From Symbiobacterium sp. (lineage in GTDB: Bacteria > Bacillota > Sulfobacillia > DUSP01 > DYEP01): a DNA stretch of 44,326 nucleotides. The notes under the pieces were generated by a model, which was not told where the DNA came from, did no database searches, and saw only the letters and a program-made list of their open reading frames with translations. How positions within the stretch are numbered: the first letter of the stretch is position 1; each line of letters begins with the position of its first letter. The DNA is taken from the NCBI GenBank assembly GCA_020725675.1, contig DYEP01000186.1, positions 1-44,326 of the forward strand. Reading direction: 5' to 3'. The translations under genes and the position numbers were made by a program. Positions 593 to 44,187 of the stretch are shown one piece after another.

Positions 593-1294
593 ATGGCAGA
601 CCAAAAGGAGATGTCAGTAGTAGAACATTTGAGCGAACTCCGGCGCAGACTCATCATTTCTGTGCTTGCGGTGTTTTTGGGCAGTGCAGGCTGTTTTGCA
701 TTTGTCGCCACCATCAGAACGTTGTTTACTCTACCCGCCGGTAGTGTGCAGCTTGTGTATCTTACTCCGCCTGAGGTGTTAATGACAGATATAAAGGTGG
801 CATTTACTGCAGGTCTGGTCGTTGCATCCCCGGTGGTGCTGTACCAGATATGGGCTTTCGTTGTACCGGGGCTCAAGCCGGGCGAGAAGAGGCTCATCCT
901 CCCAGTAGTTGTCGCTTCGCTTGTCTTCTTTCTGCTGGGCGTGGTCTTTTCGTATTTTATCGTATTGCCGTTCACCTTACGGTTCTTCTTAGGGTTTGAA
1001 ACGCCGGGTCTTGCTGCTATGTTTTCTTATTCCCGATACGTATCCTTTGCCATGGTCATCATCTTCTCATTCGGGCTCGTGTTTCAGATGCCGCTGGTCA
1101 TTTTGCTGCTTGGAAAGCTCGGGATTGTCACCTCAGCGGGACTCCGGCGTGCTCGCAAGTTCGCTATACTGGCAGTGTTCATCGTGGCTGCGGTGCTAAC
1201 TCCGCCTGATGTCATCTCGCAAGTGTTGATGGCGGGGCCAATGATCGTGCTGTATGAGCTCAGCATAGCGCTGCTACGTCTTTCTCGAAGGTGA
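593..1294 (+). CDS. tatC: Twin-arginine translocase subunit TatC
   Basis: N-terminal EHLSELRRRL, YQIWAFVVPGL, C-terminal AAVLTPPDVISQ, about six TM segments; directly follows tatA. Confidence 0.96.
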   Translation: MADQKEMSVVEHLSELRRRLIISVLAVFLGSAGCFAFVATIRTLFTLPAGSVQLVYLTPPEVLMTDIKVAFTAGLVVASPVVLYQIWAFVVPGLKPGEKRLILPVVVASLVFFLLGVVFSYFIVLPFTLRFFLGFETPGLAAMFSYSRYVSFAMVIIFSFGLVFQMPLVILLLGKLGIVTSAGLRRARKFAILAVFIVAAVLTPPDVISQVLMAGPMIVLYELSIALLRLSRR

Positions 1295-30993: not shown

Positions 30994-31216
30994 TTAAGAG
31001 CGCACTGGGAGGTGGGATGCAGTCATAACTGCTTTGTGACGTGTGAAAAGACCATAGGGCTGACATTGTGTATGCGTCACAGGTGCAGTGTACCCAATGG
31101 GGCCACAGGACGCAAATAACCGGTTAGTTAGAGCTTAGGCAAATATGCTAAGAGAACTATCAAGTATCGCAGTGTGAGATGCCAAAACTGCCAAGTTACA
31201 AGAAGGAGTGTTGGAA

Positions 31217-32161
31217 TTGGGAAGGCAAAAGACCATCGTCGTAGCCCTAGGAGGCAATGCTATTCTTCAGCCGGGCCAGAAGGGGACCGCTGAGGAACAG
31301 CTCCGAAACGTGGACGCAACTGCAAAACAGATCGCCCAACTCATAGCAAGCGGGTACCGCGTGGTTATCACTCACGGGAACGGGCCTCAAGTAGGAAACC
31401 TGCTTATTCAACACGAAGCGGGGTCCTCTCAGGTGCCTGCTTTGCCGCTTGATGTATGCGGAGCCCAATCGCAGGGACAAATAGGGTATATGATGCAGCA
31501 GTGCCTGGGTAAACGACTGAAGGAAATGGGAATCGAAAAGCCGGTTGTCACTGTTGTTACCCAGATGATCGTCAGTAAGGACGACCCGGCATTCGCAAAG
31601 CCATCAAAGCCCGTCGGCCCCTTCTACACAGAAGAACAGGCGAGGTTGCGCATGGAACAAAAAGGCGAGACTTGGGTGGAAGACGCTGGCAGGGGCTGGC
31701 GCAAAGTGGTGCCATCTCCTGACCCCATAAGCATGGTAGAGAAAGAGGCTATCTTGGCCCTGGTTGAAAGCGGAGTAGTAGTCATCGCCAACGGCGGAGG
31801 CGGTATCCCCGTGGTCCAGAAAGATGGCTACTACGAGGGGGTTGAAGCCGTTATCGACAAGGACCTGGGCGGGCAGCGCCTTGCCATGGATGTAGGGGCA
31901 GATATGTTTGTCATCCTCACTGATGTGGATAAAGTAGCTTTGCACTACAAAACTCCGGAGCAAGTGAACCTCGACCAGATGACGCTGGCGGAGGTAGAGA
32001 AATATCAAAAGGAAGGCCATTTCAAGGCCGGCAGCATGGGTCCCAAGGTGGAGGCGTGCCGAAGGTTTGTGGCTGCGGGCGGAGAGGTGGCGATTATTGC
32101 CTCACTCGATACTGCAATTGATGCGATTAACGGAAGAGCTGGAACCAGGATAGTCAGATAA
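31217..32161 (+). CDS. arcC: Carbamate kinase
   Basis: [46 protein letters not shown]. Start is approximate (31208-31217). Confidence 0.96.
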
Positions 32162-32167
32162 TGAAAG

Positions 32168-32200
32168 GGAGGAGGGGCGCTGGGAATGCGTCCCTTCTTC
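32168..32200 (+). terminator. Stem-loop after carbamate kinase
   Basis: GGAGGAGGGGCGC...GCGTCCCTTCTTC, imperfect and with G-U pairs. Confidence 0.4.
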
Positions 32201-32277
32201 AGATTCGTCTTTGGCCCTTAATTTACATAGACAATCAGCGTGTCAGCAAGGCCTGGCGCCGGAAGGAGCGGTCGACG

Positions 32278-33636
32278 ATGTATGACTATTTGATTTACGG
32301 AGGTCTGGTTGTAACGGGATCTACAATTGTGAGGGCGGACGTGGCTGTCCGGGATGGGCGCATCGAACACATCGCTCCTGAAATCGACAGAAGTTCATCC
32401 GCGAAGCACTTCGACGCTACCGGTAAGCTGGTGCTCCCAGGAGTGATTGATGTACACTCTCACCCTGTTTACGAAGACAGGATTGGCAATACCTCCATCG
32501 CTGCGGCGTTTGGTGGAGTCACTCACACGATTCACTACGCCTATGTCAAGCCCGGTCAGCCTGTGATAGACACATTGAAGCGCTTTCAGGACGAAGGATT
32601 GGCCGACTCAGTGGTGGATTTCAGCCTGCACGCAGGTTTCTTTGACGCACCTAACCAGGTTCCCCTGATACCTGAGATGTTTAAGATGGGAATCACGTCG
32701 GGCAAGCTCTTCATGACATACGCCAAGCTGAAGTGGATGAGTGACGATTACTGGTTGATGGCTGCGGCGGACATACTGGCCAAAGAAGGTGGCCTCCTCA
32801 TGGTACACGCGGAGAACGGCTTGGCCACGGACTACCTGGAGGATAAGTACTTAAAAGAAGGCAAATCCATAATGGATGTCTTTCTTGATACGCGGCCTGA
32901 CCTACTGGAGGCTGAAGCCATTAACCGGGCCACGCGAATTGCCCAGGTTGCCGGCTGCCCAATTTACATCGTGCACAACACCGCTGCGCTGAACCTTGAT
33001 GTGATCAGGCGCATTCGCGGGGAGGGCTACCGCATGTACACTGAAACCTGCCCGCAGTACTTATGTTTAAACGATGAGGTCTATGCGAGGTTTGGAGCGA
33101 GGGCAAAGGTCGGTCCGCCCATTAGGAGGGAGACAGACAGGCTGGCGCTCTGGGAAGGGTTAAAAGATGGTAGTATCGACACCATAGCCAGCGATCACGC
33201 AGCCAAGTCCAAACAGCCTGATGACGATTTCTTCCAGGCCCCCTTCGGTGCCCCCCAGGTGGAGACCTCACTGACTGTTTGCTATGATGAGGGGGTCAAC
33301 AAGGGCAGGATCCCGGTGACCCGTCTTGTGAAGGTTATGAGCGAAAATCCGGCCCGAATTTTCGGTCTGTATCCGCATAAAGGCACTGTGCAGGTAGGAA
33401 GTGACGCCGACATCGTGGTGTTCGATCCGCACCTGAGGCATAAGATTACCGACGAAACGCAGAAAACGAAGGCGGGCTACACACTATACCATGATCGTGA
33501 AGTCCTGGGCAAACCCGTGTTTTCTATGCAACGGGGCCGGGAATTGCTGCGGGACGGAGAAATCGTTGCAAGACCCGGCTGCGCCAAGTTTTATCCAACC
33601 CGTGCAGGCCAGGTAGACATTGATGCGTTAGTTTAA
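32278..33636 (+). CDS. Cyclic amidohydrolase, dihydropyrimidinase/D-hydantoinase-like
   Basis: PGVIDVHSH, GGVT, carboxylated-Lys KLFMTY, VHAEN, YIVH, ETCPQYL, ASDH, NPARIFGLYPHKG, GSDAD. Confidence 0.88.
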   Translation: MYDYLIYGGLVVTGSTIVRADVAVRDGRIEHIAPEIDRSSSAKHFDATGKLVLPGVIDVHSHPVYEDRIGNTSIAAAFGGVTHTIHYAYVKPGQPVIDTLKRFQDEGLADSVVDFSLHAGFFDAPNQVPLIPEMFKMGITSGKLFMTYAKLKWMSDDYWLMAAADILAKEGGLLMVHAENGLATDYLEDKYLKEGKSIMDVFLDTRPDLLEAEAINRATRIAQVAGCPIYIVHNTAALNLDVIRRIRGEGYRMYTETCPQYLCLNDEVYARFGARAKVGPPIRRETDRLALWEGLKDGSIDTIASDHAAKSKQPDDDFFQAPFGAPQVETSLTVCYDEGVNKGRIPVTRLVKVMSENPARIFGLYPHKGTVQVGSDADIVVFDPHLRHKITDETQKTKAGYTLYHDREVLGKPVFSMQRGRELLRDGEIVARPGCAKFYPTRAGQVDIDALV

Positions 33637-33660
33637 ATGCACACGCATAACAGGCATATT

Positions 33661-33693
33661 GAGGCAGGCGGTAGTGCCGCCTGTCTTGTTCTT
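33661..33693 (+). terminator. Terminator after the amidohydrolase
   Basis: GAGGCAGGCGG...CCGCCTGTCTT followed by GTTCTT. Confidence 0.6.
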
Positions 33694-33816
33694 ATGCGCT
33701 CGGGATGGAAGTATGAATATCCATGAGGTCGGGGGGTCCGGGGCACAGCCGAGGGGGAAAGATGCAGTGAGTGTAGAAAATAACTAGCAAGAAATACTTG
33801 AGCTGAGGAGGTTTAC

Positions 33817-35340
33817 ATGGGTCCCGTCATTTTAAACGGAACGAGCCTGACTCTAGCGGAGATAAAGGACGTGGCCAGATCCGGCAGAACAGTCTGTGTT
33901 GATCCAGAGGCCCTGACCCGGGTAACCCGATCCCGGAACGTGCTGGAGCGCTACCTCCAGGACAACCGGGCTGTCTATGGAATCACAACGGGGTTTGGTA
34001 TGTTTGCAAACCGCACTATTTCCAGAGAGCAGCTCAGGCAACTGCAGGCGAACCTGATCAGATCCCATTCGGTGGCGACAGGAACACTCTTTCCTGACGA
34101 CATTGTGAGAGGTGCTATGCTACTCAGGGCTAACACTTTTGCCAAAGGGTATTCCGGAGTGAGACCTGAGGTACTGGAACAGCTGGTTCAGGCCTTGAAT
34201 AGGGGCGTATTACCGTGCGTATTTGAGAAAGGTTCGCTTGGCGCAAGCGGAGATCTCGCGCCTTTGGCTCATATGGCGCTTGCGCTGATGGGGGAGGGTA
34301 GGGCGAAGTTTGGCGGCCAAGAAATGGAAGCAGCTGAAGCGCTAAAACTTGCGGGTATGACTCCTTTGACGTATGAAGCCAAGGAAGGGCTCGCGCTGAT
34401 CAACGGTACCCAGTTTATGACGTCTTCCGGTGCGCTTTCGGTACTGGATGCAGAAACCATTATGAAGACTGCGGAAATCACAAGTGCGCTCACGCTTGAG
34501 GTATTGCGGGGTATCCCGGCGCCTTTTGAAGATCGAATACACAGGTTAAGACCGCATCCTGGTCAACTGCGCTCAGCTTTCAATCTTCGCCGACTCCTTG
34601 AGGGTAGCGAATTGGTTACCGAGCCTGGGGAGGTTCGGGTGCAGGACGCCTATACCTTGCGGTGCATCCCTCAGGTCCATGGTGCTTCGTGGGACGCACT
34701 CGAGTACGTAACCAAGGTGATTGAAGTAGAGATCAACTCGGCTACCGACAACCCGCTGGTATTTCCCGAACATGGAGACACGGTATCCGGCGGGAACTTT
34801 CATGGCCAGCCTATCGCCCTGGCACTGGACTTTCTAGCCATCGCCGTTTCGGAAATAGCCAACATCAGCGAGAGGCGGATAGAACGCCTGCTCAACCCCA
34901 GCCTGAGTGCTCTTCCTGCGTTTCTCACCGTCAACGGAGGGCTTGAATCAGGTTACATGATTGCGCAGTATACCGCTGCTGCGCTCGTGTCTGAGAACAA
35001 GGTGCTCGCATCGCCTGCATCGGTTGACTCTATACCAGTGTCGGCGAACCAGGAGGATCACGTGAGCATGGGAAGCATTTCAGCGCGTAAACTCCGTGAG
35101 ATCATTTCAAATACCATGACTGTGTTGGCGATTGAACTCATGTGCGGGTGCCAGGCGCGGGATCTTGGCCAAAAAGGCCGGATGGGCGTCGGAACCAGCA
35201 AGGCGTACGATCTTGTGCGGCAGCACTTGCCACCGCTTGATAGAGACAGGGTACTGCACAACGACGTGGAGACTGTCCGCCGGTTGGTCTCATCGGGCGA
35301 AGTGGTCAGAGTTGTAGAGGAGTGTACTGGTAAGCTGTAG
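33817..35340 (+). CDS. hutH: Histidine ammonia-lyase
   Basis: [13 protein letters not shown] (HAL-type SH), MIO-forming [34 protein letters not shown]. Confidence 0.96.
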
Positions 35341-35356
35341 AAAGGAGGTTTTTCGT

Positions 35357-36994
35357 TTGGACATCAAAGCTCCCAGAGGAACCATGATTACCTGCAAAGG
35401 GTGGCAGCAAGAAGCTGCCATGCGAATGCTCATGAATAACCTGGACCCTGAGGTGGCTGAAAGGCCGGAAGACCTTGTGGTGTACGGAGGGACCGGGAAG
35501 GCGGCGAGGAACTGGGAAGCATATCACCGGATAGTCAACAGTTTGCGCCAGCTGGAGAGCGATGAGACACTGCTTGTGCAGTCAGGCAAGCCTGTCGGAG
35601 TGGTGCGCACACATGAGGATGCACCGAGAGTACTCATCTCCAACGCGATGCTGGTACCGGCGTGGGCGAACTGGGATACGTTCCGGGAGCTTGAGTTGAA
35701 GGGCCTCACTATGTACGGCCAGATGACTGCGGGCAGCTGGATCTATATAGGTACTCAGGGGATTATACAGGGCACTTATGAAACTCTGGCGGAGCTGGCC
35801 AGGCAGCACTTCGGTGGGACCCTGAAAGGGCGGCTTGTAGTTACCGCGGGCCTTGGCGGAATGGGTGGAGCCCAGCCGCTGGCGGTGACGATGAACGAAG
35901 GTGTGGTCATAGCGGTGGAGGTGGACGAAAAACGCATAGAACGGCGGGTAAGGACGGGCTACTGCGATACTCAGACCGCGGACGTGGACGAGGCGGTCAG
36001 AATGGCCGAACAGGCTGTCAAGGAAGGCAAGCCACTTTCCATCGCATTACTGGGCAATGCTGCCAACATGTTACCCGAGCTACTTATGCGGGGGATAAGG
36101 GTCGATGTGGTAACAGACCAGACCTCCGCCCACGATATACTCAATGGGTATATACCCGCAGGGATGTCTCTGGATGAAGCGGAGGCGCTCAGACGCTCTG
36201 ATCCGGCGCAGTATATCGAGCGGGCCAAGGAAAGCGTGGCGCTGCACGTACAATCAATGCTGGACTTCAAGAGGCGCGGCGCTGTAGTATTCGATTACGG
36301 AAACAACATCAGGAAGCAGGCGTACGAGGCAGGGGTAAAAGAAGCATTTGAAATACCCGGATTCGTTCCAGCGTTCATAAGGCCTATGTTCTGCGAGGGG
36401 AAAGGCCCGTTCAGGTGGGTCGCACTCTCGGGGGACCCCGAGGACATATACAAGACAGACAGGGCTGTGCTCGAAGAATTCCCGGAGGACGAGGCGCTTT
36501 CGCGCTGGATCAGCATGGCACAGAAGCGTATCCGGTTCCAGGGGCTCCCTGCACGGATCTGCTGGCTCGGGTACGGTGAAAGGGAACGCTTCGGCTTGCG
36601 GCTGAACAACATGGTTAAAAGAGGGGAACTGTCTGCTCCCATTGTGATAGGCAGGGATCACCTCGACACTGGTTCAGTGGCCTCGCCCTTCCGCGAGACC
36701 GAAGGCATGAAAGATGGTAGTGACGCCATAGCCGACTGGCCTATATTGAACGCCCTCGCCAACACTGCTTGCGGCGCGAGCTGGGTGTCAGTACACCACG
36801 GTGGCGGAGTTGGCATCGGCTATTCTATCCATGCGGGCATGGTAGTTGTGGCGGATGGCACCGACTCCATGGCGAGGCGGCTATCAAGGGTCCTGACTGC
36901 GGACCCAGGGATTGGGGTGATGAGACACGCTGACGCCGGCTATGATAAGGCGCTTTGGGTGGCAAGGGAGCGCGGCGTCAAGATTCCCAAATAG
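35357..36994 (+). CDS. hutU: Urocanate hydratase
   Basis: [53 protein letters not shown]. Confidence 0.97.
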
Positions 36995-37007: not shown

Positions 37008-37050
37008 ACACCCCCCTCCCGGCCCCGCAGGGCCGGATGGAGGGGGGTGT
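37008..37050. terminator. Hairpin between convergent hutU and rnfD
   Basis: ACACCCCCCTCC...GGAGGGGGGTGT with an inner GGCCC/GGGCC stem. Confidence 0.7.
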
Positions 37051-37064
37051 GATGTGTGCAGATT

Positions 37065-38057
37065 CTATTTCGATACTGTCTTGATCCGGATGACCGGGAT
37101 CCGCGCTTCGACGATCTGACCGAACTTCCTGGGCCGTGTCAGCGCGTCGATAAGCGGGACCAGCGGATTCATCAGCAATATGCTGAAAGCCACACCTTCC
37201 GGCGCTGCTTGGTACAGTCTGATCAGCGCCACGAGGATGCCCATGCCTATTCCGAAGATGATCTTACCTGCATCTGTAATGGGCGTAGTCACCCAGTCGG
37301 TGGCCATGAAGAACGAACCGAATACAAGCCCCCCTGCCAGTACGTGATAGAAGGGGTTCGAGCCCAGCAGCATGGTAAGGGCGAACACCGTTCCAATAGC
37401 GAACACAGGCGTTCTCCAGTTGATGTGTCCTTTAAACAGCAGGTAAAGCCCTCCGATCAGCACAGCGAGGACGGATGACTCGGCCATGCTGCCTCCAGGG
37501 TGGGCGATGAACAGGGCAGAGTAACTGGGCAGGAGCTGACCTTGGCCCAGTTTCAGCAGAGCGAGCGGGGTTGCTCCGCTGGTTACGTCTATGATCCCGA
37601 ACCGCAGGTGAAGAGGGGCCATGTCGGCATTGAGCCAGACGAACGCCGGCGCTAGAATGATCAGCGCGACTCGCCCAAATACGGCCGGGTTGAACAGATT
37701 CCATCCCAGTCCACCGCACATTTCTTTTGCTACACCCACTGCCAGGAAGGTACCGATCACTGCGAGCCACCATGGAAACGTGGGCGGCAGCGCCAGTGCA
37801 AGGAGCGTACCGGTAACGAACGCGCTAAGGTCCTCCAGGGAATGGGGCTTACCCATGAGTTTCCTCATGCCCCAAGCTGTACACGCGGCCGTGACGTTGC
37901 AGACAATCAGGATGAATATGGCGTTCAACCGGTAGAAAATGATGGAGACGATGATTATAGGTACCAGCGCCAACAGTACATCGCGCATAGCCCGTGTTAC
38001 AGTGTCTCCTGAGTTTAGGTGAGGAGGTGGGGAGTAGAGCAGATCAGGCTTTTCCAT
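37065..38057 (-). CDS. rnfD: RnfD/NqrB family membrane flavoprotein
   Basis: PPHL start, KEMCGGLGWNLFNPA, covalent-FMN motif SGATPL (37569-37580), GSMAE, FFMATD, PEGVAFSILLMN. Confidence 0.93.
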   Translation of the reverse strand: MEKPDLLYSPPPHLNSGDTVTRAMRDVLLALVPIIIVSIIFYRLNAIFILIVCNVTAACTAWGMRKLMGKPHSLEDLSAFVTGTLLALALPPTFPWWLAVIGTFLAVGVAKEMCGGLGWNLFNPAVFGRVALIILAPAFVWLNADMAPLHLRFGIIDVTSGATPLALLKLGQGQLLPSYSALFIAHPGGSMAESSVLAVLIGGLYLLFKGHINWRTPVFAIGTVFALTMLLGSNPFYHVLAGGLVFGSFFMATDWVTTPITDAGKIIFGIGMGILVALIRLYQAAPEGVAFSILLMNPLVPLIDALTRPRKFGQIVEARIPVIRIKTVSK

Positions 38058-38073
38058 AACATTAACCCCCCTT

Positions 38074-39393
38074 CTAAGCGCGCCTGCGCCGGGCCATGAT
38101 CTCGGCCTTGGCGTTGCGGAAGAATTGGACTAACGGTCTCCTTGATGGGCACACGTACGCGCACGCGCCACACTCAAAGCAATCCAGAACATCAAACTTC
38201 TCGGCTTTGTCGTAGTTGTGCGCTTCTGCGTACATACCGATGAAGTTTGGCAAAAGGAACATGGGGCATGCCTTCACACACTTGCCGCATCGCACGCAGT
38301 TGTGCCATTTCGCTTCAGATACCATCGACTCAGGAAGAGCGACGATGCCGCTTGTTCCCTTAACAACCGGTACATCCAGGCTTGACTGAGCCCACCCGGT
38401 CATGGGACCTCCCATAATTACCTTCCTCGGCGTCTGGGAGAACCCCCCGCACTGCTCCAGCACATGAGACACGGGCGTTCCTATCCGTATCTTCAGGTTT
38501 TTGGGTTGCGCTATGCACGGGCCCGTCACAGTCAGTACTCTCTCGAACAATGGTTTACCCAGGGTTACCGCTTCAGCAATGGCCACCGCAGTACCCACAT
38601 TCTGAACCAGCGCACCCACCTCGCTGGGCAGCTTGCCGGGAGGAACTCGCCTGTCCAGGACCGCCTTGATTAGCTGTTTCTCTGCGCCTTCCGGGTACTT
38701 TACTTCAAGCGGCACCACTTCCATGTCTTGCTCTTCACCAGCTACTTCCTGCATGACCCGGATGGCGTCGGGTTTATTTGTTTCAATCCCGATGTAAACC
38801 TTGGATGCGCCCACCGCCTTTCGCGCGATATTGGCCCCAAGCACCACATCCTGAGGTCTCTCCAGCATGATCCTATGGTCGCAAGTGAGGTAGGGCTCGC
38901 ACTCGCAGCCATTGATGATCACGCTGTCGATGGGCTTGTTCTTAGGAGGAGTCAGCTTTACGTGAGTCGGGAACGCGGCGCCACCAAGCCCTACCACGCC
39001 CGCTTGCCTCACTGCCTGGCGGATATCTTCCACGTTGATATCCCTGTAATCCAGCGGGTCCTGGTCAGGTACCCAGACCTGATCCCCTTCCACTTCAATC
39101 ACGACGCTCAGCACGCGCGTGTTGTTGAAATATGGGAGCGGTTCGATGGCGACCACGTGACCGGCCACGCTGGAATGAACAGGTGCCGAGATGAACGCGT
39201 CGGAGTCTCCGATCACCTGTCCGACCGTCACGCTTTCCCCCACATTCACCTTGGGTGTGCACGGTGCTCCCGTGTGCTGATGAAGGGGGATTATCACTTG
39301 CTGCGGCAGATCGATCTGCTCTACAGGCAGGGAGTTGGTTTGCTCTTTGTACTCGGGGGGATGAATGCCCCCTGCAAAAGTCCTTGTAGCCAC
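38074..39393 (-). CDS. rnfC: RnfC family NADH/FMN-binding iron-sulfur subunit
   Basis: FAGGIHP, GVVGLGGAAFPTHVK, NGCECEPY, GGPM, two CxxCxxCxxxCP ferredoxin motifs. Confidence 0.94.
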   Translation of the reverse strand: MATRTFAGGIHPPEYKEQTNSLPVEQIDLPQQVIIPLHQHTGAPCTPKVNVGESVTVGQVIGDSDAFISAPVHSSVAGHVVAIEPLPYFNNTRVLSVVIEVEGDQVWVPDQDPLDYRDINVEDIRQAVRQAGVVGLGGAAFPTHVKLTPPKNKPIDSVIINGCECEPYLTCDHRIMLERPQDVVLGANIARKAVGASKVYIGIETNKPDAIRVMQEVAGEEQDMEVVPLEVKYPEGAEKQLIKAVLDRRVPPGKLPSEVGALVQNVGTAVAIAEAVTLGKPLFERVLTVTGPCIAQPKNLKIRIGTPVSHVLEQCGGFSQTPRKVIMGGPMTGWAQSSLDVPVVKGTSGIVALPESMVSEAKWHNCVRCGKCVKACPMFLLPNFIGMYAEAHNYDKAEKFDVLDCFECGACAYVCPSRRPLVQFFRNAKAEIMARRRRA

Positions 39394-39394
39394 G

Positions 39395-40174
39395 TTAATC
39401 CCCCCTCACTGTCTCTTGAGGCTGGTTTTGCCGGGTGCGGAACCTATTGGCGACCAATCCGAGAAATACGCCAAGCACCGCGAGGGCACGTACGGGTTTG
39501 AACGCGGTGCCCCAGACATATGCTGACATAGGTACCTTCGGCGAATCGGGCAACCCGTAAGCGGACGGCCGATCTCTGAGCACGTAAAAGACACCGAGAC
39601 CTCCCATCTCTTCAAGGCCGTAGACCCTTGCATCTCTGTATCCCGCCGCGCGGAGGTTGTTTACTCTCTTTTCTGCCTCGAGCATGAGTACGCGTCTTTC
39701 GCCGTACTGGAGTGCGCCTGTGGGACACGCCTTGACACATGCGGGTGAGAGCCCGTCGACGATGCGGTTGTAGCAGAAGTTACACTTCTTCATGGCGTTC
39801 TCTTTATGGTCGTAGCGGGGCACCGCAAATGGGCAGTTTGCTGCGCAGTAGTTGCACCCAATGCACCTGCGGTTATCGATGAGCACAGTGCCCATTTCGG
39901 TGCGGTGCGTAGCGCCGCTTGGGCAAACCGATATGCATGCAGCCTCTGTACAGTGCATGCACTGTGATTTCGCAAATAACCACTGTACTTCTCCGTTAAC
40001 TCTATGCTCCCGGAAATGCACCCGGGTCCAGGTATCATGCATGAACTTGGAAGGGTTTTCATATGTCCCCCCAAATTCTGTATTCTCAGCAGGCAGCTGG
40101 TTCCACTGTTTGCACGCGACCTGGCAAGCTCGACAGCCTATGCATTTAGTCGTATCTATGCATACCGCTCTCAC
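39395..40174 (-). CDS. Formate dehydrogenase iron-sulfur (beta) subunit with C-terminal membrane anchor (FdnH-like)
   Basis: Four [4Fe-4S] Cys groups (CIGCRACQVAC, CMHC, CIGCNYCAANCP, CNFC...CVKACP); hydrophobic C-terminal helix. Confidence 0.92.
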   Translation of the reverse strand: MRAVCIDTTKCIGCRACQVACKQWNQLPAENTEFGGTYENPSKFMHDTWTRVHFREHRVNGEVQWLFAKSQCMHCTEAACISVCPSGATHRTEMGTVLIDNRRCIGCNYCAANCPFAVPRYDHKENAMKKCNFCYNRIVDGLSPACVKACPTGALQYGERRVLMLEAEKRVNNLRAAGYRDARVYGLEEMGGLGVFYVLRDRPSAYGLPDSPKVPMSAYVWGTAFKPVRALAVLGVFLGLVANRFRTRQNQPQETVRGD

Positions 40175-43100
40175 TTACATCACCTTCCTTATGTCGCACA
40201 GGAACACCTTGTACTCCGGTATCATGGTATTGGCATCACCGATATGGGCGGTAAGGAGGTTCGCTGCGTAGTTCTTGCTGCGGTCCTTCCCACCGGTGAC
40301 AAAACCGTTGAAACCGTAGTGCCAGGGCATTCCTACCAGTTCGTAGAACAAGCCACCCACCTTGAGAGCCTTGATTCGTTCTGTGATGCAGACCTTCGCA
40401 TACACCTCGCCGCGCGGGCTTACCACTTTCACCAGTTCGCCAGGTTTCAACCCTCGCGCTTTCGCCAGCTCGGGGCTGATCTCTACGAACATCTCGGGCA
40501 TGAGTTCGGCAAGCCACGGGAGGTTTCTGGTCATGGCCCCCGCCTGCCAGTGCTCGGTTACCCTGTAGGTGGTACCGATGAGCGGGTAGTCGGCCGAGCC
40601 GATGGCGGCTCTTGGGTTCATATCCCCTGACCAGATCTTGATCACGGGGTTGATCTGCTGAGATGACAGCATGTTCTTCACGGGGCTCTCGAAGGGTTCG
40701 TAGTGTTCAGGGAACGGACCGTCCGCGGTCCCATCGGCGAAAATGCAGCCTAAGCCCTCCACACGCATAATGAAAGGAGACTTGGCGGATACCTCTGGCC
40801 TTACATGACTGCCTGTGGCCGTCCTGAACACGAAATCAGGCACGTCGTAGGTAATCCACTGTTGACGTTCTTCATCCCACTGGACCAGCGCTTTTTGGGC
40901 GTTCCACGGAGTTCCGTTCACATCGCAGGAGGCCCTGTTATAAAGGATTCGCCTGTTGATTGGCCAGCACCAGGACCACCGCGGGTGGAGGCCAAGCCCC
41001 GACGGGTCTGAGTCATCTCTGCGCGCTGCCATGTTCCCTTCCTCGGTATACCAGCCGGAATAGATCCAGCAGCCACAAGAGGTCGAACCGTCGTCCTTTA
41101 GTGAAGCGAAGCTGGGCAATAGCCTGTGGGTAGTCAGGTCATAACCGTTTATTTCCTTCGCCACGAGGTGTACATCGGGGTGGTCCACGGAGCCGTAGTT
41201 CCACGTCAGGTCGAGAATCGGGCGGTCCTTGATGGACGTACTTCCCTGATACTTGTCTCTAATGGCTTTATACAGCAAAGATACTATTTCAAGGTCCGAC
41301 TTGGCATCCCCGGGGGGCTCAACCGCTTTATAACGCCACTGCGCCCACCGACCGCTGTTGGAGACGCTGCCCTCTTTCTCGAACGAAGCCGCTGCAGGAA
41401 GGAGGAATACTTCCGTCTTTATATCAGCAGGGTTTACCCCGGGTCTCTTCCAGAACACGGCCGTATCGGTTTCCCACAGGTCGACTGCTACCATCCAGTC
41501 CAGATTCTCAAGCGCTTTTGCTTCCTTGTTGGCGTTAGGACCGCCTACGCACGGGTTCTGACCCCAGAGAAACAGGCCCTTGATAACCCCTTCATACATG
41601 GCCTCGAATAGAGAGATGAAGGAGTAGTTGCCGCCTGCCTTCGGCAGGTAATCGTAGCAGAAGTCGTTTGCAGCTGTAGCCTTGTCGCCAAAAAAGGCCT
41701 TCATAAGCGATATGAAGAATTTGGGGAAGTTCTTCCAGTAGTTGACGCTGTCCGGATCGGCAGTCGTCGGGGTGCTGTTTTTCAGATACGTGGCCAAATC
41801 CCTGTCGGTGGCTACTGGGTAGCGCAGGTAGCCTGGAAGTATGTGGAACAGAAGCGCAAAGTCCGTCGACCCTTGGACGTTGGATTCCCCTCTCATCGCG
41901 TTCACGCCACCACCAGGGATACCGACGTTGCCCAGCAAGAGCTGGAGTATGGCATATGCCCGCACGTTCTGAGTACCTACGGTGTGCTGGGTGGTACCCA
42001 TGGCATACATGATTGTGCCGGCCTTCCCGGGCTGACTTGTGGCCGAGTAAGTCTCAGCGACCTTCAAGAACAGGTCCTTTGGGGCACCTGTTATGCGGGA
42101 CACGGTATCAGAGTCATACCGCGAGTAGTGGCGTTTTAAGAGTTGGAATACGCAGTTGGGGTCAGACAGCGTTTTATCACGCTTGGGTACTCCGTTTTCG
42201 TCCAGCTGGTAGACCCAGGAGGACTTGTTGTATGACCTTGTGCTCGGGTTGTAGCCCGAAAACAGGCCGTCATGGAACGAGAATTCGGGACTGACGAGAA
42301 AGGAGGCATTGGTGTATTCCACAACATACTCCCGGTTGAACAGGTTGTTATCCAGGATGTACTTGATCATGCCTCCGATGAAAGCAATATCGGTACCGGG
42401 CCGCAGTGGGCAGTACAAGTCAGCCTGCGACGCGGTGCGTGTGAACCGGGGATCGACCACTACCAGTTTGGCTCCGCGCTCCTTGGCTTTCAGCACCCAT
42501 TTCATAGAAATGGGGTGATTCTCCGCAGGATTGCTCCCGATTACGAGGAAGCAGTCGGAGTTGCGCAGATCGATCCAGTGATTTGTCATAGCTCCTCTAC
42601 CGAATGTGGGCGCCAGACCGGCGACCGTAGCGGAGTGTCATATACGTGCCTGGTGTTCGAGATATACCACGCCCAGAGCACGAAAAAGTTTGGAAATGAG
42701 GTAGCACTCCTCGTTGTCGAGGGCGGCACCACCTAACGATGCGATCGCTTCAGTGCGGTTTACGAGGTTACCCTGAGCATCACGGAGTATCCAATGAGCG
42801 TCACGGGTCTTCTTTACGTTTTCCGCGATCTTATTCAGCGCCCATGCCCAGTCCTTTTCCTCCCACCGGTCGCTACCTGGGGCACGATACTGGACCTTGG
42901 TCAAGCGAAGCTCATTGTTCGCTACCTGATACAGTGCGCTGCCTTTGCTGCAGAGAGAACCCTTGTTAATGGGATGGTCGGGGTCGCCTTCAGTGTTGAC
43001 GACTTTTCCCTTTTCGCTGTGAACGATGATCCCGCATCCGACTGAGCAGTACGGGCAAATGGTGGAGGTTTCCTTGGCATACCGGACCCGCGATGGTTCC

Positions 43101-43198
43101 ACCGCATGGGCTACCGCATTTACTCCCAGGGTCGACAGGGAGGCGGCGGCTATTCCCGCCCCGGATGCCTTCAAAAATTGCCTCCGAGAGATCTTCAT
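40175..43198 (-). CDS. fdnG: Selenocysteine-containing formate dehydrogenase alpha subunit, Tat-exported (1007 aa, Sec187)
   Basis: ORFs 42638-43198 and 40175-42589 are in frame across one TGA (HQARI-U-HSATV). Tat motif SRRQFLK, CPYCSVGC...C cluster, RGESNVQG, molybdopterin-dinucleotide-binding C-terminus. Confidence 0.95.
42609..42626 (-). promoter_or_regulatory. Bacterial SECIS element
   Basis: GGUCGCCGGUCUGGCGCC starts exactly 11 nt after the UGA. It has a bulged U and an apical GU, like the E. coli fdhF minimal SECIS. Confidence 0.9.
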
Positions 43199-43227
43199 TG
43201 ATTGTGTTCACCTCTCCAAGACAGCTG

Positions 43228-43995
43228 TTATTCAGTTGTGTTGAACACTGCGAAGTACAGCGTTCTCGCGGCCTGAGAGCACTTTTGAAACCCCTCGCGT
43301 TCCGCTGCCAAATCGAGACCTATTGTCAAGAGGTCTTTCAGCGGTAAAAAGGTTTCACCGGCATCAGAAAACACAAAGGTCTTAATGTACGTATTGCACT
43401 CATGACATACTTGCACGCGGCTTGACCGGTCCCCAGGAGGATAAAAGTAACCGAGACGATCCTGCTTGTTGTTGCCACAATTCGGGCAGGTAAGCCTGGG
43501 GAAGGCCCATGAATGACCGCACAGCCAGCAGTGCAGATGCCGGGCGCCACCTTCATCAATCGTGGCCAAATATGGCTTTTGGCCGCAAACGGGGCATGCG
43601 TCCCCCGAATCCGGTGCATCTATCACCTCCTTCCTGAAGGCGTGGAAATATGGCACTAACGCCAGCATGATACAAGAGTCCGCAAGTGCTTCATCCGGGC
43701 CGTGGCATGATCCTTCCGACAAGAGTTGCCGAATCCTCATGGGTTTTACGTCTATATACTGGCTTACAGAGCACGCATTTGCGATAGAATTCACAAGCTC
43801 TCGAAAAGAGGGTTCGGGGATCTGATTGAGCGGGTCGTCACTGGTATTCATGACGCCATGCGCGCCCAAAAACACCCGCTCTTGCAGCCGGTACACCTCG
43901 GCATATCTGGCAAGATACGGTGCTTTTGCCTTCTCTTTGTTCAGGCGGTCACGAACTAGCCGATTAAAAAAACCATCGAACCCGTCATCAAACAT
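43228..43995 (-). CDS. fdhE: Formate dehydrogenase accessory protein FdhE
   Basis: CPVCG, CWLC, CPNCG and CHEC..Y.K motifs, LD..AEREG tail; ATG 43995 behind GAGGTG. Confidence 0.9.
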   Translation of the reverse strand: MFDDGFDGFFNRLVRDRLNKEKAKAPYLARYAEVYRLQERVFLGAHGVMNTSDDPLNQIPEPSFRELVNSIANACSVSQYIDVKPMRIRQLLSEGSCHGPDEALADSCIMLALVPYFHAFRKEVIDAPDSGDACPVCGQKPYLATIDEGGARHLHCWLCGHSWAFPRLTCPNCGNNKQDRLGYFYPPGDRSSRVQVCHECNTYIKTFVFSDAGETFLPLKDLLTIGLDLAAEREGFQKCSQAARTLYFAVFNTTE

Positions 43996-44187
43996 GAATC
44001 CCACCTCTTAACACTTTCTTCTACACAACTTTGCATTTCCCTTCCCAAATATTGCAGAATTCCAACAGAGTATAGGGGTAAAACAACAAAAACAACACCT
44101 GACCAGGTATATCCTAAACAAACGGCCCGAAAGACGCAAAAATAAGAAAATTGCCAAAACGTACTATTGGTTTGAACCAAAGGTTCC

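Follow-up and report, generated by a model that had tools for sequence, protein, structure and literature searches.

An fdhEAB-rnfCD operon of Symbiobacterium sp. as a candidate transmembrane formate:NAD(H) oxidoreductase

The contig DYEP01000186.1 of Symbiobacterium sp. (assembly GCA_020725675.1), analysed at its full length of 44,326 nucleotides (hereafter the window), carries the operon fdhE-fdhA-fdhB-rnfC-rnfD, which probably encodes a four-subunit transmembrane formate:NAD(H) oxidoreductase assembled from FdhA, FdhB, RnfC and RnfD. A transmembrane formate:NAD+ oxidoreductase had been proposed for this locus in an earlier sequence-only reading, and support for it comes from the conserved linkage of fdh genes to rnfCD, the status of these rnfCD genes as an extra pair, the separate clades of both Rnf subunits and a structure prediction for FdhB and RnfD lying in the weak band, while the direction of the reaction, its electrogenicity and ion coupling, as well as the physical complex, the electron path and reversibility, are what we infer. 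The arrangement suggests a quinone-free wire between formate outside and NAD(H) inside the cell.

Organization of the operon and its products

All five genes occupy the minus strand and, as given by their coordinates (Table 1), are separated by successive gaps of 29, 0, 1 and 16 bases. On the minus strand the hairpin at the end of rnfD has a folding energy of -43.3 kcal/mol (z = -4.97), against -44.9 kcal/mol on the plus strand; none of 200 shuffles folded as well, the list produced by a simple terminator scan does not contain it, and it is likely a two-way terminator for rnfD and hutU. The five-gene layout, the gaps and the terminal hairpin described previously are thus confirmed from coordinates and folding, and so is the statement that cytochrome b of FdnI type and NrfD, as well as rnfG, rnfE, rnfA and rnfB, have no place in the operon: none of them is encoded there, including the quinone-reducing cytochrome b gamma subunit (FdnI) that belongs to Fdh-N. 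All five reading frames are intact, with every cofactor motif kept.

Table 1. Features of the window related to the fdhEAB-rnfCD operon (positions counted from the first letter of the window)
Feature	Position	Strand	Observation
tatC, needed for FdhAB export	593..1294	+	PF00902, E 6e-68; 36 kb from operon
hutU	35357-36994	+	Faces hairpin at end of rnfD
GC-rich hairpin between convergent rnfD and hutU	37009-37050 (about)	.	Followed by TTTCTT
rnfD, polytopic membrane subunit	37065..38057	-	PF03116, 330 bits; TIGR01946, 279.8 bits
Thr163 codon of RnfD, motif DVTSGATP	37569..37571	-	Aligns with TATP of 7zc6_D
rnfC, cytoplasmic NADH/FMN subunit	38074..39393	-	TIGR01945; two [4Fe-4S] motifs
fdhB, four-cluster FdnH-type Fe-S subunit	39395..40174	-	Pfam Fer4_11; four Fe-S motifs
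FdhB C-terminal membrane helix, residues 224-242	39449..39505	-	Hydropathy 1.79; then basic tail NRFRTR
fdhA, catalytic Mo/W-bisPGD formate dehydrogenase subunit, selenocysteine type, predicted Tat-exported	40175..43198	-	TIGR01553
In-frame TGA, read as selenocysteine, motif HQARI-U-HSATV	42638..42640	-	Single TGA read through in fdhA
FdhA Tat signal peptide MKISRRQFLKASGAGIAAASLSTLGVNAVAHA, contains RRQFLK	43103..43198	-	Pfam PF10518, 29.3 bits
fdhE-like maturation gene	43228..44004	-	258 aa, zinc-ribbon CxxC pairs; Pfam FdhE_central and FdhE_C

The product of fdhE matches TIGR01562 weakly (55.7 bits, below the cut-off of 187.65), and an FdhE-like gene is also kept in the operons of relatives. 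FdhA scores 1359 bits against TIGR01553 (cut-off 814), contains the Pfam domains TAT_signal, Molybdop_Fe4S4, Molybdopterin and Molydop_binding, and shows the feature characteristic of Fdh-N, that is, a Tat-exported Mo/W-bisPGD subunit with Sec or Cys (TIGR01553, PF10518 and the TGA motif). The Tat signal of FdhA and the C-terminal anchor of FdhB noted from the sequence were both seen (PF10518; helix 224-242), the signal being present on FdhA alone and FdhB having no signal peptide of its own. According to a Pfam check, six related loci (L066, L068, L069, L070, L073 and L075) have a tatC no more than a few kb away from the operon. At the column corresponding to the in-frame TGA, 49 rows of relatives, in which some records are counted twice under two locus ids, hold TGA in 44 cases and TGT/TGC in five; judged by this alternation with cysteine codons, the TGA of fdhA is a Sec codon. 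Just downstream of it a small GGUCU-loop hairpin can be drawn, with ordinary folding energy (z = -0.77). Among the 35 tRNAs detected by aragorn in the assembly of 253 contigs there was no tRNA-Sec, and SelB is matched only in part, at the end of a contig.

FdhB falls below the equivalog cut-off of TIGR01582 (239.5 against 334.7 bits), and among solved structures it comes closest to E. coli FdnH (1kqf_B, E 1.9e-67), of which residues 32-276, membrane helix included, are aligned. In the helix region, 57 sequences show no variation at P227 and R229 and at least 90% conservation at W221, L240 and N243. By NCBIfam scores the other two products are of Rnf type: RnfC reaches 564 bits against the TIGR01945 cut-off of 246, and RnfD likewise exceeds the TIGR01946 cut-off of 207. 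RnfC combines RnfC_N, Complex1_51K, SLBB and Fer4 domains and is full length, its residues 5-438 being collinear with residues 7-441 of A. woodii RnfC (9eri_C, E 5.1e-139); RnfD is also full length and matches 7zc6_D at E 2.2e-68. The column of Thr163, which we take to be the covalent-FMN threonine known from Rnf and Nqr, is occupied within the RnfD clade by threonine in 80 of 82 sequences and by serine in the other two.

Conservation and phylogeny of the fdh-linked rnfCD pair

A separate rnfC-rnfD-rnfE-rnfA-rnfB-apbE operon was found in the genome (contigs C241 and C186), so that the fdh-linked rnfCD genes are an extra pair and not the only one, which settles the check for a second rnf operon suggested in the initial reading. 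RnfA/E/G/B are not encoded with the fdh-linked RnfC/D, and rnfE, rnfA and rnfB lie in this separate operon with its own rnfCD; its ApbE could flavinylate the fdh-linked RnfD.

The two kinds of pairs are also apart phylogenetically, as the proposed own-clade test required, with canonical RnfC/D taken from this class only. In the RnfD tree one branch (SH-aLRT 100) splits 27 rows, 16 with rnfE/A and 11 without known context, from 85 rows, 62 of which are fdh-linked, nine linked to an FdnH-like gene and 14 without known context; a careful subset of 63 rows reproduced this split with support 100/100. In the RnfC tree a branch with support 99 holds 34 rows (20 with rnfE/A and 14 without known context), none of them fdh-linked. 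The operon's own rows stand on the fdh-linked side of both branches.

The neighbourhood survey bore out the expectation that the arrangement would be conserved. A search of 210 class genomes for FdhB gave 11 top matches with 52-100% identity, followed by one at 47%; these 11 come from seven families, and every one of them has an rnfC next to it. From public genomes 566 RnfD relatives were obtained, and the 80 most like the fdh-linked RnfD were examined: fdhA/fdhB occur in the flank of 57 and only a more distant FdnH-like gene in that of nine, while rnfE/A/B are absent from flanks of up to 6 kb in all 80. The remaining 14 loci include 11 merely truncated by a contig end upstream, two (L147 and L150) likewise truncated but with a PhsA-like gene downstream, and one decayed copy in the sister species G001, where fdhEAB is missing, synteny ends at the start of rnfC and rnfC itself is frameshifted. 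The combination found in the window, with adjacent and co-directional fdhA, FdnH-type fdhB, rnfC and rnfD and without rnfGEAB, extends over multiple families and phyla, and the linkage is kept through at least four gene orders, the genes being always co-directional. When 401 genomes were sampled evenly across the phylum, ten contained RnfD at E <= 2.6e-94; in nine of them fdh genes adjoin it, and the tenth RnfD is on a contig of 1,990 bases. At least one isolate in culture, Anoxynatronum buryatiense Su22 (L100), has the full operon, which makes the module directly testable.

Formate dehydrogenase is not the sole neighbour of this RnfCD clade. In five loci it is found beside a Tat-signal HybA-like Fe-S gene and a NiFeSe hydrogenase, in another five beside PhsA-like molybdoenzymes, and a closed genome contains the bare Fe-S-rnfC-rnfD trio, so that comparison of all four kinds of loci leaves a periplasmic Fe-S subunit of FdnH/HybA type as the constant neighbour of RnfCD. 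We tentatively propose, with somewhat less than even confidence, that the clade represents a free-standing, horizontally mobile membrane module connecting NAD(H) inside with the periplasm without quinones and docking FdnH/HybA-type Fe-S subunits and, by way of these, exported enzymes of no fewer than three kinds (formate dehydrogenase, NiFeSe hydrogenase, PhsA-like molybdoenzyme). RnfD of such a module may also contribute to ion translocation.

Proposed electron path and competing interpretations

Two-chain modelling of the FdhB-RnfD contact, part of the FdhB-RnfD-RnfC model recommended in the sequence-only reading, passed its controls in the weak band, with a score of 0.52 versus 0.00 for the best of three controls, at least 92% of contacts shared between runs and partner pLDDT of at least 81. 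Of 80 solved complexes 58 attained the mark, as did two of 110 mismatched pairs; passing scores of 0.60 or under were seen in only seven of the 80 and in both of these mismatches, and because our own alignments were used for FdhB-RnfD, the counts hold only roughly here. The predicted contact is accordingly a weak indication of direct interaction.

In the proposed oxidoreductase FdhA would be exported by Tat with FdhB riding along, and the C-terminal helix of FdhB would hold it in the membrane. The last Fe-S cluster of FdhB would occupy the role of the RnfG flavin in Rnf and exchange electrons with the covalent FMN that RnfD would carry on its outer side, from where they would pass the membrane inside RnfD to the Fe-S clusters and FMN of cytoplasmic RnfC and further to NAD+/NADH. 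The net reaction, formate(out) + NAD+(in) <-> CO2(out) + NADH(in), would involve neither quinone nor ferredoxin and would carry two negative charges across the membrane per turnover, thereby being tied to membrane potential, so that the potential would be built by formate oxidation and would push the NADH-driven reduction of CO2 to formate outside the cell. By textbook potentials, formate and NADH lie about 0.11 V apart, which yields about 21 kJ/mol; transferring two charges against a membrane potential of usual size costs more, so that electrogenic formate oxidation depends on favourable concentrations or pH.

The presence of the second rnf operon allows another assembly, in which fdh-linked RnfC/D join RnfE, RnfA and RnfB (and RnfG where present) of the canonical operon in an alternative Rnf with docked FdhAB, and formate feeds the whole Rnf, for instance for ion-gradient-assisted ferredoxin reduction together with NAD+ reduction. 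The flavin of RnfD forms the junction between two halves of Rnf, genes of the RnfA/E family are found elsewhere in 29 of 30 carrier genomes, and nearly all carriers from the class show a second RnfC or RnfC fragments (any strong RnfC match occurring in 65 of the 210 genomes), so that the module may depend on the remaining Rnf subunits. Nevertheless, co-occurrence with RnfA/E may merely mirror a shared need for ApbE or a shared lifestyle, and one Dehalococcoidia MAG, possibly incomplete, has the module and no PF02508 match. Given also that none of the 80 flanks mentioned above contains rnfE/A/B, and that the fdh-linked RnfD and RnfC form an old separate clade in several phyla, which obliges each transferred pair to fit the resident RnfA/E, we regard this assembly as unlikely.

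It is also rather improbable that linkage reflects co-regulation only, with FdhAB electrons going to another acceptor (the menaquinone pool, reached via a different membrane protein, or some soluble carrier) and the extra RnfCD being a condition-specific stand-in for canonical RnfCD. Because the genome encodes cytochrome b and NiFe hydrogenase, a quinone pool is likely, and the FdhB-RnfD contact comes from the weak prediction described above. Yet the single PF01292 cytochrome b is encoded on another contig inside the NiFe hydrogenase operon, between the large subunit and its protease, NrfD was not found in the whole genome (99% complete by markers, 253 contigs), and we know of no case of quinone reduction by a single FdhB helix. 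Furthermore, the linkage survives the rearranged gene orders and the three kinds of catalytic partners, always beside the Fe-S subunit, and rnfC is broken where fdh was lost. That the operon is a remnant, decaying or silent and now without function in this organism, as could be imagined from the sister species with its frameshifted rnfC and no fdh and from the tRNA-Sec not found among the fragmented contigs, is hardly credible in view of the five intact frames with their cofactor motifs, tight gene spacing, terminator and partial SelB.

Relation to known systems and significance

Formate dehydrogenase-N of E. coli (FdnGHI) serves as an arm of a redox loop across the membrane. Its Tat-exported Sec catalytic subunit (PDB 1KQF) is reproduced in the operon, and its four-cluster FdnH with C-terminal membrane helix has a putative counterpart in FdhB, whereas the FdnI cytochrome b and the quinone site are missing, the encoded membrane partner being RnfD and the cytoplasmic end RnfC/NAD(H). 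With the Rnf complex (RnfABCDGE; PDB 7ZC6, 9ERI and 8AHX) the operon shares full-length RnfC and RnfD scoring above NCBIfam cut-offs and the kept flavin threonine, but differs in that RnfA/E/G/B are not at the locus, RnfC/D belong to their own clades and ferredoxin would not be the partner. E. coli hydrogenase-2 (HybOABC) and the HybA/NrfC-NrfD modules similarly tie a periplasmic enzyme to the membrane via an FdnH/HybA-type Fe-S subunit, and the hydrogenase-linked relatives of RnfCD carry a Tat-signal HybA-like protein; in contrast, the membrane subunit here is RnfD instead of the quinone-reactive NrfD/HybB type and the acceptor is presumably NAD+. RnfD is homologous to NqrB of Na+-NQR (NqrA-F; 7xk3_B, E 2.7e-28) and RnfC weakly matches NqrA family models, although NqrC/D/E/F and quinone reduction have no counterpart here and ion pumping is not implied.

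[quoted passage not shown] The same four gene products are concerned; in that portion the proposal is a one-sentence inference within a metabolic reconstruction, and we liken the two by description, not by sequence. The breadth and modularity of the Fdh-RnfCD module appear to be undescribed in the literature searched.

How NADH is linked to formate and H2 made or used outside the cells of anaerobes is a standing question in syntrophy and in the bioenergetics of alkaliphiles. To our knowledge, known exported formate dehydrogenases and hydrogenases run via quinones or cytochromes, and a two-subunit Rnf fragment carrying electrons across the membrane would, if confirmed, be a third solution, with membrane potential as direct driver or product of NADH/formate exchange and with the RnfCD half of Rnf able to work as an independent wire. 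Should the wider reading of the clade as a free-standing module prove true, it would establish a new family of respiratory or reverse-electron-transport complexes and give syntrophs and alkaliphiles a direct route from NADH to formate or H2 coupled to membrane potential. The module, carried by about 10 of the 401 phylum genomes sampled and by members of several other phyla, is frequent enough to have a bearing on carbon flow in digesters and in the sediments of soda lakes.

Operon organization and its genomic background

Five closely spaced genes, from an fdhE-like frame to rnfD, occupy the minus strand of the window between 37065 and 44004, the consecutive intergenic gaps being 29, 0, 1, and 16 bases. 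Coordinates, family searches, and folding thus bear out in every particular the five-gene anatomy, the spacing, and the hairpin facing hutU that the sequence-only reading had described. This GC-rich hairpin separates rnfD from hutU and reaches −43 kcal/mol (z about −5) upon direct folding, although a consensus terminator scan returned no minus-strand site 3′ of rnfD; Rfam at gathering thresholds gave no matches over the whole window. FdhB is devoid of a signal peptide and contains a single hydrophobic helix (residues 224–242) followed by basic residues, its alignment with E. coli FdnH extending through the C-terminal helix. Catabolic genes of histidine and pyrimidine type (31208–36994) face the operon.

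Coordinates of features in the window (first ten rows), on other contigs of the same genome (G000), and in loci of relatives
Feature	Position	Strand	Remarks
fdhE-like	43228-44004	minus	55.7 bits, under the curated equivalog cut-off (family search)
fdhA	40175-43198	minus	FDH-N alpha model, 1359 bits vs cut-off of 814; Tat signal
fdhB	39395-40174	minus	Family match of 239.5 bits, under the curated equivalog cut-off
rnfC	38074-39393	minus	Passes Rnf subfamily model, 564 bits
rnfD	37065-38057	minus	Passes Rnf subfamily model, 279.8 bits
GC-rich hairpin	~37009-37050		
hutU	35357-36994		Convergent with rnfD
hutH	33817-35340		Faces fdh-rnf operon
Dihydropyrimidinase-like gene	32161-33636		Faces fdh-rnf operon
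Carbamate kinase	31208-32161		Faces fdh-rnf operon
Second rnfC, 5′ part of second rnfD (G000)	C241:3-2170		Loci L176, L177 together with the C186 part
3′ end of second rnfD, rnfE, rnfA, rnfB, ApbE flavin transferase gene (G000)	C186:2284-5699		
rnfD and broken rnfC, sister species G001	L076:8732-11879		Also L022, L077
Hydrogenase-linked rnfCD	L105:4542-10697		
Hydrogenase-linked rnfCD	L121:5983-10670		
PhsA-like gene with rnfCD	L156:2900-8453		
Fe-S protein-rnfC-rnfD, genome G322	L189:4633-7883		Between leuS and trmL

FdhA is a single 1,007-residue protein if TGA at 42638–42640 is read as selenocysteine. Among 49 related rows (some records present twice) this column is occupied by TGA in 44 and by Cys in 5, and Cys codons (TGT/TGC) are found at this position in fdhA of the fdh-rnfCD loci L070, L071, L075, L079, and L097. 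Since the small hairpin folded from the putative SECIS stretch has ordinary energy (z = −0.77), the selenocysteine call is based on the protein alignment and the Sec/Cys column. None of the 35 tRNAs identified with aragorn in the 253-contig assembly is tRNA-Sec, and SelB is represented by an incomplete match where a contig ends.

The same genome, 99% complete by markers, carries a separate rnfC-D-E-A-B-apbE operon distributed over two contigs, C241 and C186, the overlapping ends of which are near-identical, not identical. This second operon rules out that the window's rnfCD is the only pair in the genome, split from rnfGEAB. In it, rnfD abuts rnfE, and both rnfG and any FMN_bind domain are absent; the same rnfG-less order, rnfC-D-E-A-B(-apbE), is encountered in at least 16 other loci of the class (L031–L034, L036, L038, L039, L041, L054–L056, L059, L064, L157, L158, and L161), in agreement with rnfCDEAB listed for two Limnochordia isolates in the available part of PMC11456536. 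Elsewhere in the genome, FMN_bind proteins with four (C168:313-1500) and two domains (C98:11806-12438) are possibly extracytoplasmic flavoproteins, and contig C93 encodes a 152-aa lipoprotein-like one. NrfD was not found in the assembly and the sole cytochrome b sits within a NiFe hydrogenase operon, which makes it an unlikely partner, so that FdhAB is left in this assembly without a conventional membrane partner.

Linkage survey and phylogeny of RnfCD

FdhB has a match at E ≤ 1e-55 in 32 of 210 genomes of the same class. The 11 best of them (52–100% identity, E ≤ 6.9e-89, seven families; 47% identity for the next one) all lie beside a same-strand RnfC match, wider flanks containing the full fdhE-fdhA-fdhB-rnfC-rnfD set in six cases, a partly cut one in four, and fdhB-rnfD-rnfC in one; tatC was found within a few kb in six of these loci when checked by Pfam. 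Public genomes, one per species, were then scanned with an alignment of fdh-linked RnfD, and the best 80 of 566 relatives were kept, that is, loci picked by their likeness to fdh-linked RnfD. Within this set, fdhA or close fdhB is present in the flank of 57, and a more distant FdnH-like gene alone in nine. Of the remaining 14, 11 merely run into a contig end immediately upstream of rnfC/rnfD, two are likewise truncated upstream with a PhsA-like gene downstream, and one is from the sister species G001. Neither rnfE, rnfA, nor rnfB was detected in any of the 80 flanks, the queries used readily revealing such genes in canonical loci. Thus, the arrangement does recur, mostly in Bacillota by record (Clostridia, Dethiobacteria, Tissierellia, and unclassified), with a few loci labelled Desulfovibrionia, Dehalococcoidia, or Actinomycetota; single records of the whole set may reflect MAG binning errors. 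Among the carriers is a cultured isolate, Anoxynatronum buryatiense Su22 (L100), which has fdhE-A-B-rnfC-D. When 401 genomes of the phylum were sampled evenly, 10 proved to have RnfD at E ≤ 2.6e-94, nine of them with adjacent fdh and the tenth on a contig of only 1,990 bases. Since canonical RnfD matches reach 1e-88 across the phylum, an E-value threshold alone fails to separate the two types, and genomic context and trees were used instead.

In the RnfD tree (112 rows), one branch with SH-aLRT of 100 separates 27 rows (16 beside rnfE/A and 11 of unknown context) from 85 (62 fdh-linked, 9 FdnH-like-linked, and 14 of unknown context). The same split, supported at 100/100, was obtained for a careful 63-row subset comprising all 16 rnfE/A rows, 10 canonical-side unknowns, 26 random fdh-linked and all nine FdnH-like-linked rows, the window, and L147, a locus with a PhsA-like neighbor. 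The RnfC tree (102 rows) has a support-99 branch holding 34 rows, 20 with rnfE/A and 14 of unknown context, with no fdh-linked row among them. Fdh-linked RnfD and RnfC therefore stand apart from their rnfE/A-linked counterparts, with the proviso that these trees are unrooted and their canonical rows come from the class of Symbiobacterium only; module carriers have the canonical operon as well, and its RnfC/D fall across the dividing branch. These data bear upon the possibility that the extra RnfCD assembles with RnfEAB supplied by the canonical operon. RnfA/E-family genes are indeed present in 29 of 30 carrier genomes, but one carrier has no such match at all, and this explanation is further weakened by the absence of rnfE/A/B from the flanks surveyed and by the existence of a separate RnfCD clade across phyla.

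Other catalytic partners of the RnfCD clade

Formate dehydrogenase is not the only enzyme linked to this clade. Five loci (L093, L105, L117, L121, and L136) combine, in this order, rnfC-rnfD, a Tat-signal HybA/FdnH-like Fe-S gene, and the small and large subunits of NiFeSe hydrogenase with maturation (hyp) genes, and look like a hydrogenase version of the fdh-rnfCD module. In one Bacillota MAG, the hydrogenase-linked rnfCD of L093 and rnfCD-fdhAB (L141) are in tandem on one contig, a third module (L121) being on another. A PhsA-like Tat molybdoenzyme with its Fe-S subunit adjoins rnfCD in five more loci (L156, L122, L154, L147, and L150), situated beside rnfD-rnfC or, in two Actinomycetota MAGs, after rnfC-rnfD instead. 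Finally, the near-closed genome G322 (3 contigs) contains, in addition to full fdhE-A-B-rnfC-D (L183), a second copy reduced to three genes, those of an Fe-S protein of 284 aa, rnfC, and rnfD, with no catalytic subunit nearby. Across all these contexts, the constant neighbor is a periplasmic four-cluster Fe-S subunit, which has its own Tat signal where the catalytic partner supplies none; such constancy would be expected if the Fe-S subunit docks on RnfD.

Co-regulation of fdh and rnfCD without physical contact of the products would also place these genes together. Their linkage, however, persists in at least four rearranged gene orders, co-directional throughout, and RnfCD is associated with three kinds of catalytic partner; these findings, along with the lack of an alternative membrane partner for FdhAB in the assembly, weaken this explanation. 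That the operon is a silent remnant is disfavored by intact frames and motifs.

The sister species G001 (same genus, about 89% nucleotide identity to the window neighborhood) keeps rnfD and rnfC, the latter split by a frameshift into 318 and 141 aa. Synteny stops at the start of rnfC (window position 39406), beyond which unrelated AT-rich DNA lacks fdhEAB, and FdhB was not found in this genome (90% complete). An apparent tRNA gene lies upstream of rnfC on the opposite strand. This locus would fit decay of RnfCD after loss of Fdh, being a single case in which MAG sequencing errors can mimic frameshifts.

Proposed electron transfer and its energetics

RnfD of the window aligns over its full length with the solved RnfD chains 7zc6_D (E 2.2e-68) and 9eri_D, its Thr163 (SGATP) being aligned to their TATP. 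This position, Thr in 80 and Ser in 2 of 82 clade members, is presumably that of the FMN-carrying threonine on the outer face in Rnf/Nqr structures. RnfC is collinear with that of A. woodii, and its GLGGAxFPTHVK stretch is retained, as are both of its CxxCxxCxxxCP motifs. In Rnf, the flavin of RnfG feeds the outer FMN of RnfD, with riboflavin and then RnfC downstream. The genes present, their export signals, the membrane helix of FdhB, the cofactor motifs, the conserved linkage, and the clade are observed directly. From these features, we infer that FdhAB would reside outside the cell with the FdhB helix packed against RnfD, that the last FdhB cluster would substitute for RnfG in electron exchange with the flavin of RnfD, and that electrons would cross the membrane inside RnfD on to RnfC and NAD(H).

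Two-chain folding of RnfD and FdhB with custom alignments (82 and 57 rows, respectively) passed its controls, scoring 0.52 vs 0.00 for the best of three, which falls in the weak-support band; at least 92% of contacts were shared between runs, with partner pLDDT of at least 81. In the calibration of the method, 58 of 80 solved complexes attained the mark, as did 2 of 110 mismatched pairs; passing scores of ≤0.60 were obtained for just 7 of the 80 and for both passing mismatches. Since custom alignments were used, these counts hold only roughly. We know of no solved FdnH-RnfD complex that the predictor could have memorised, which makes a pass on that ground unlikely, and the prediction may add a small increment to the case. 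Together with the linkage survey, the separate clade, and the extra rnfCD pair, it makes the formate:NAD(H) wire FdhAB-RnfCD, proposed by the sequence-only reading, the best-supported interpretation, ranking above its rivals.

The system is a hybrid of Rnf and Fdh-N: it is not filed as Rnf since four of six subunits are missing, nor as Fdh-N since there is no cytochrome b. The literature searched (full text, subscription journals excluded) contains no characterised FdhAB-RnfCD enzyme, as had been supposed. Of two papers there that use the name RnfCD, one is relevant. In its available part, this preprint (bioRxiv 10.1101/2025.07.15.664484) gives the FdhAH-RnfCD idea one sentence, proposes the direction from NADH to formate, and reports detection of proteins of at least two complex components. 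The accessible portions of two other papers describe a soda-lake acetate oxidiser with RnfC, D, and G only and one Tat-type FDH, the two left unlinked (PMC6295475), and an exported Thermacetogenium FDH of the usual quinone-linked type (PMC6895022). Thus, the idea is known from a single preprint sentence; in the literature searched, there appears to be no precedent for the survey, for a separate clade, or for versions with hydrogenase and PhsA-like enzymes.

The potentials of CO2/formate (about −0.43 V) and NAD+/NADH (about −0.32 V) span about 21 kJ/mol per two electrons. Since the transfer of two charges against a membrane potential of about 150 mV would require more energy than this, the direction from NADH to external formate, pushed by the potential, would be the easier one at neutral pH. 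Many related MAGs apparently come, by their isolate labels, from habitats with external pH near 10, and at such pH the bicarbonate/formate couple would be much more negative, so that formate oxidation could build membrane potential.
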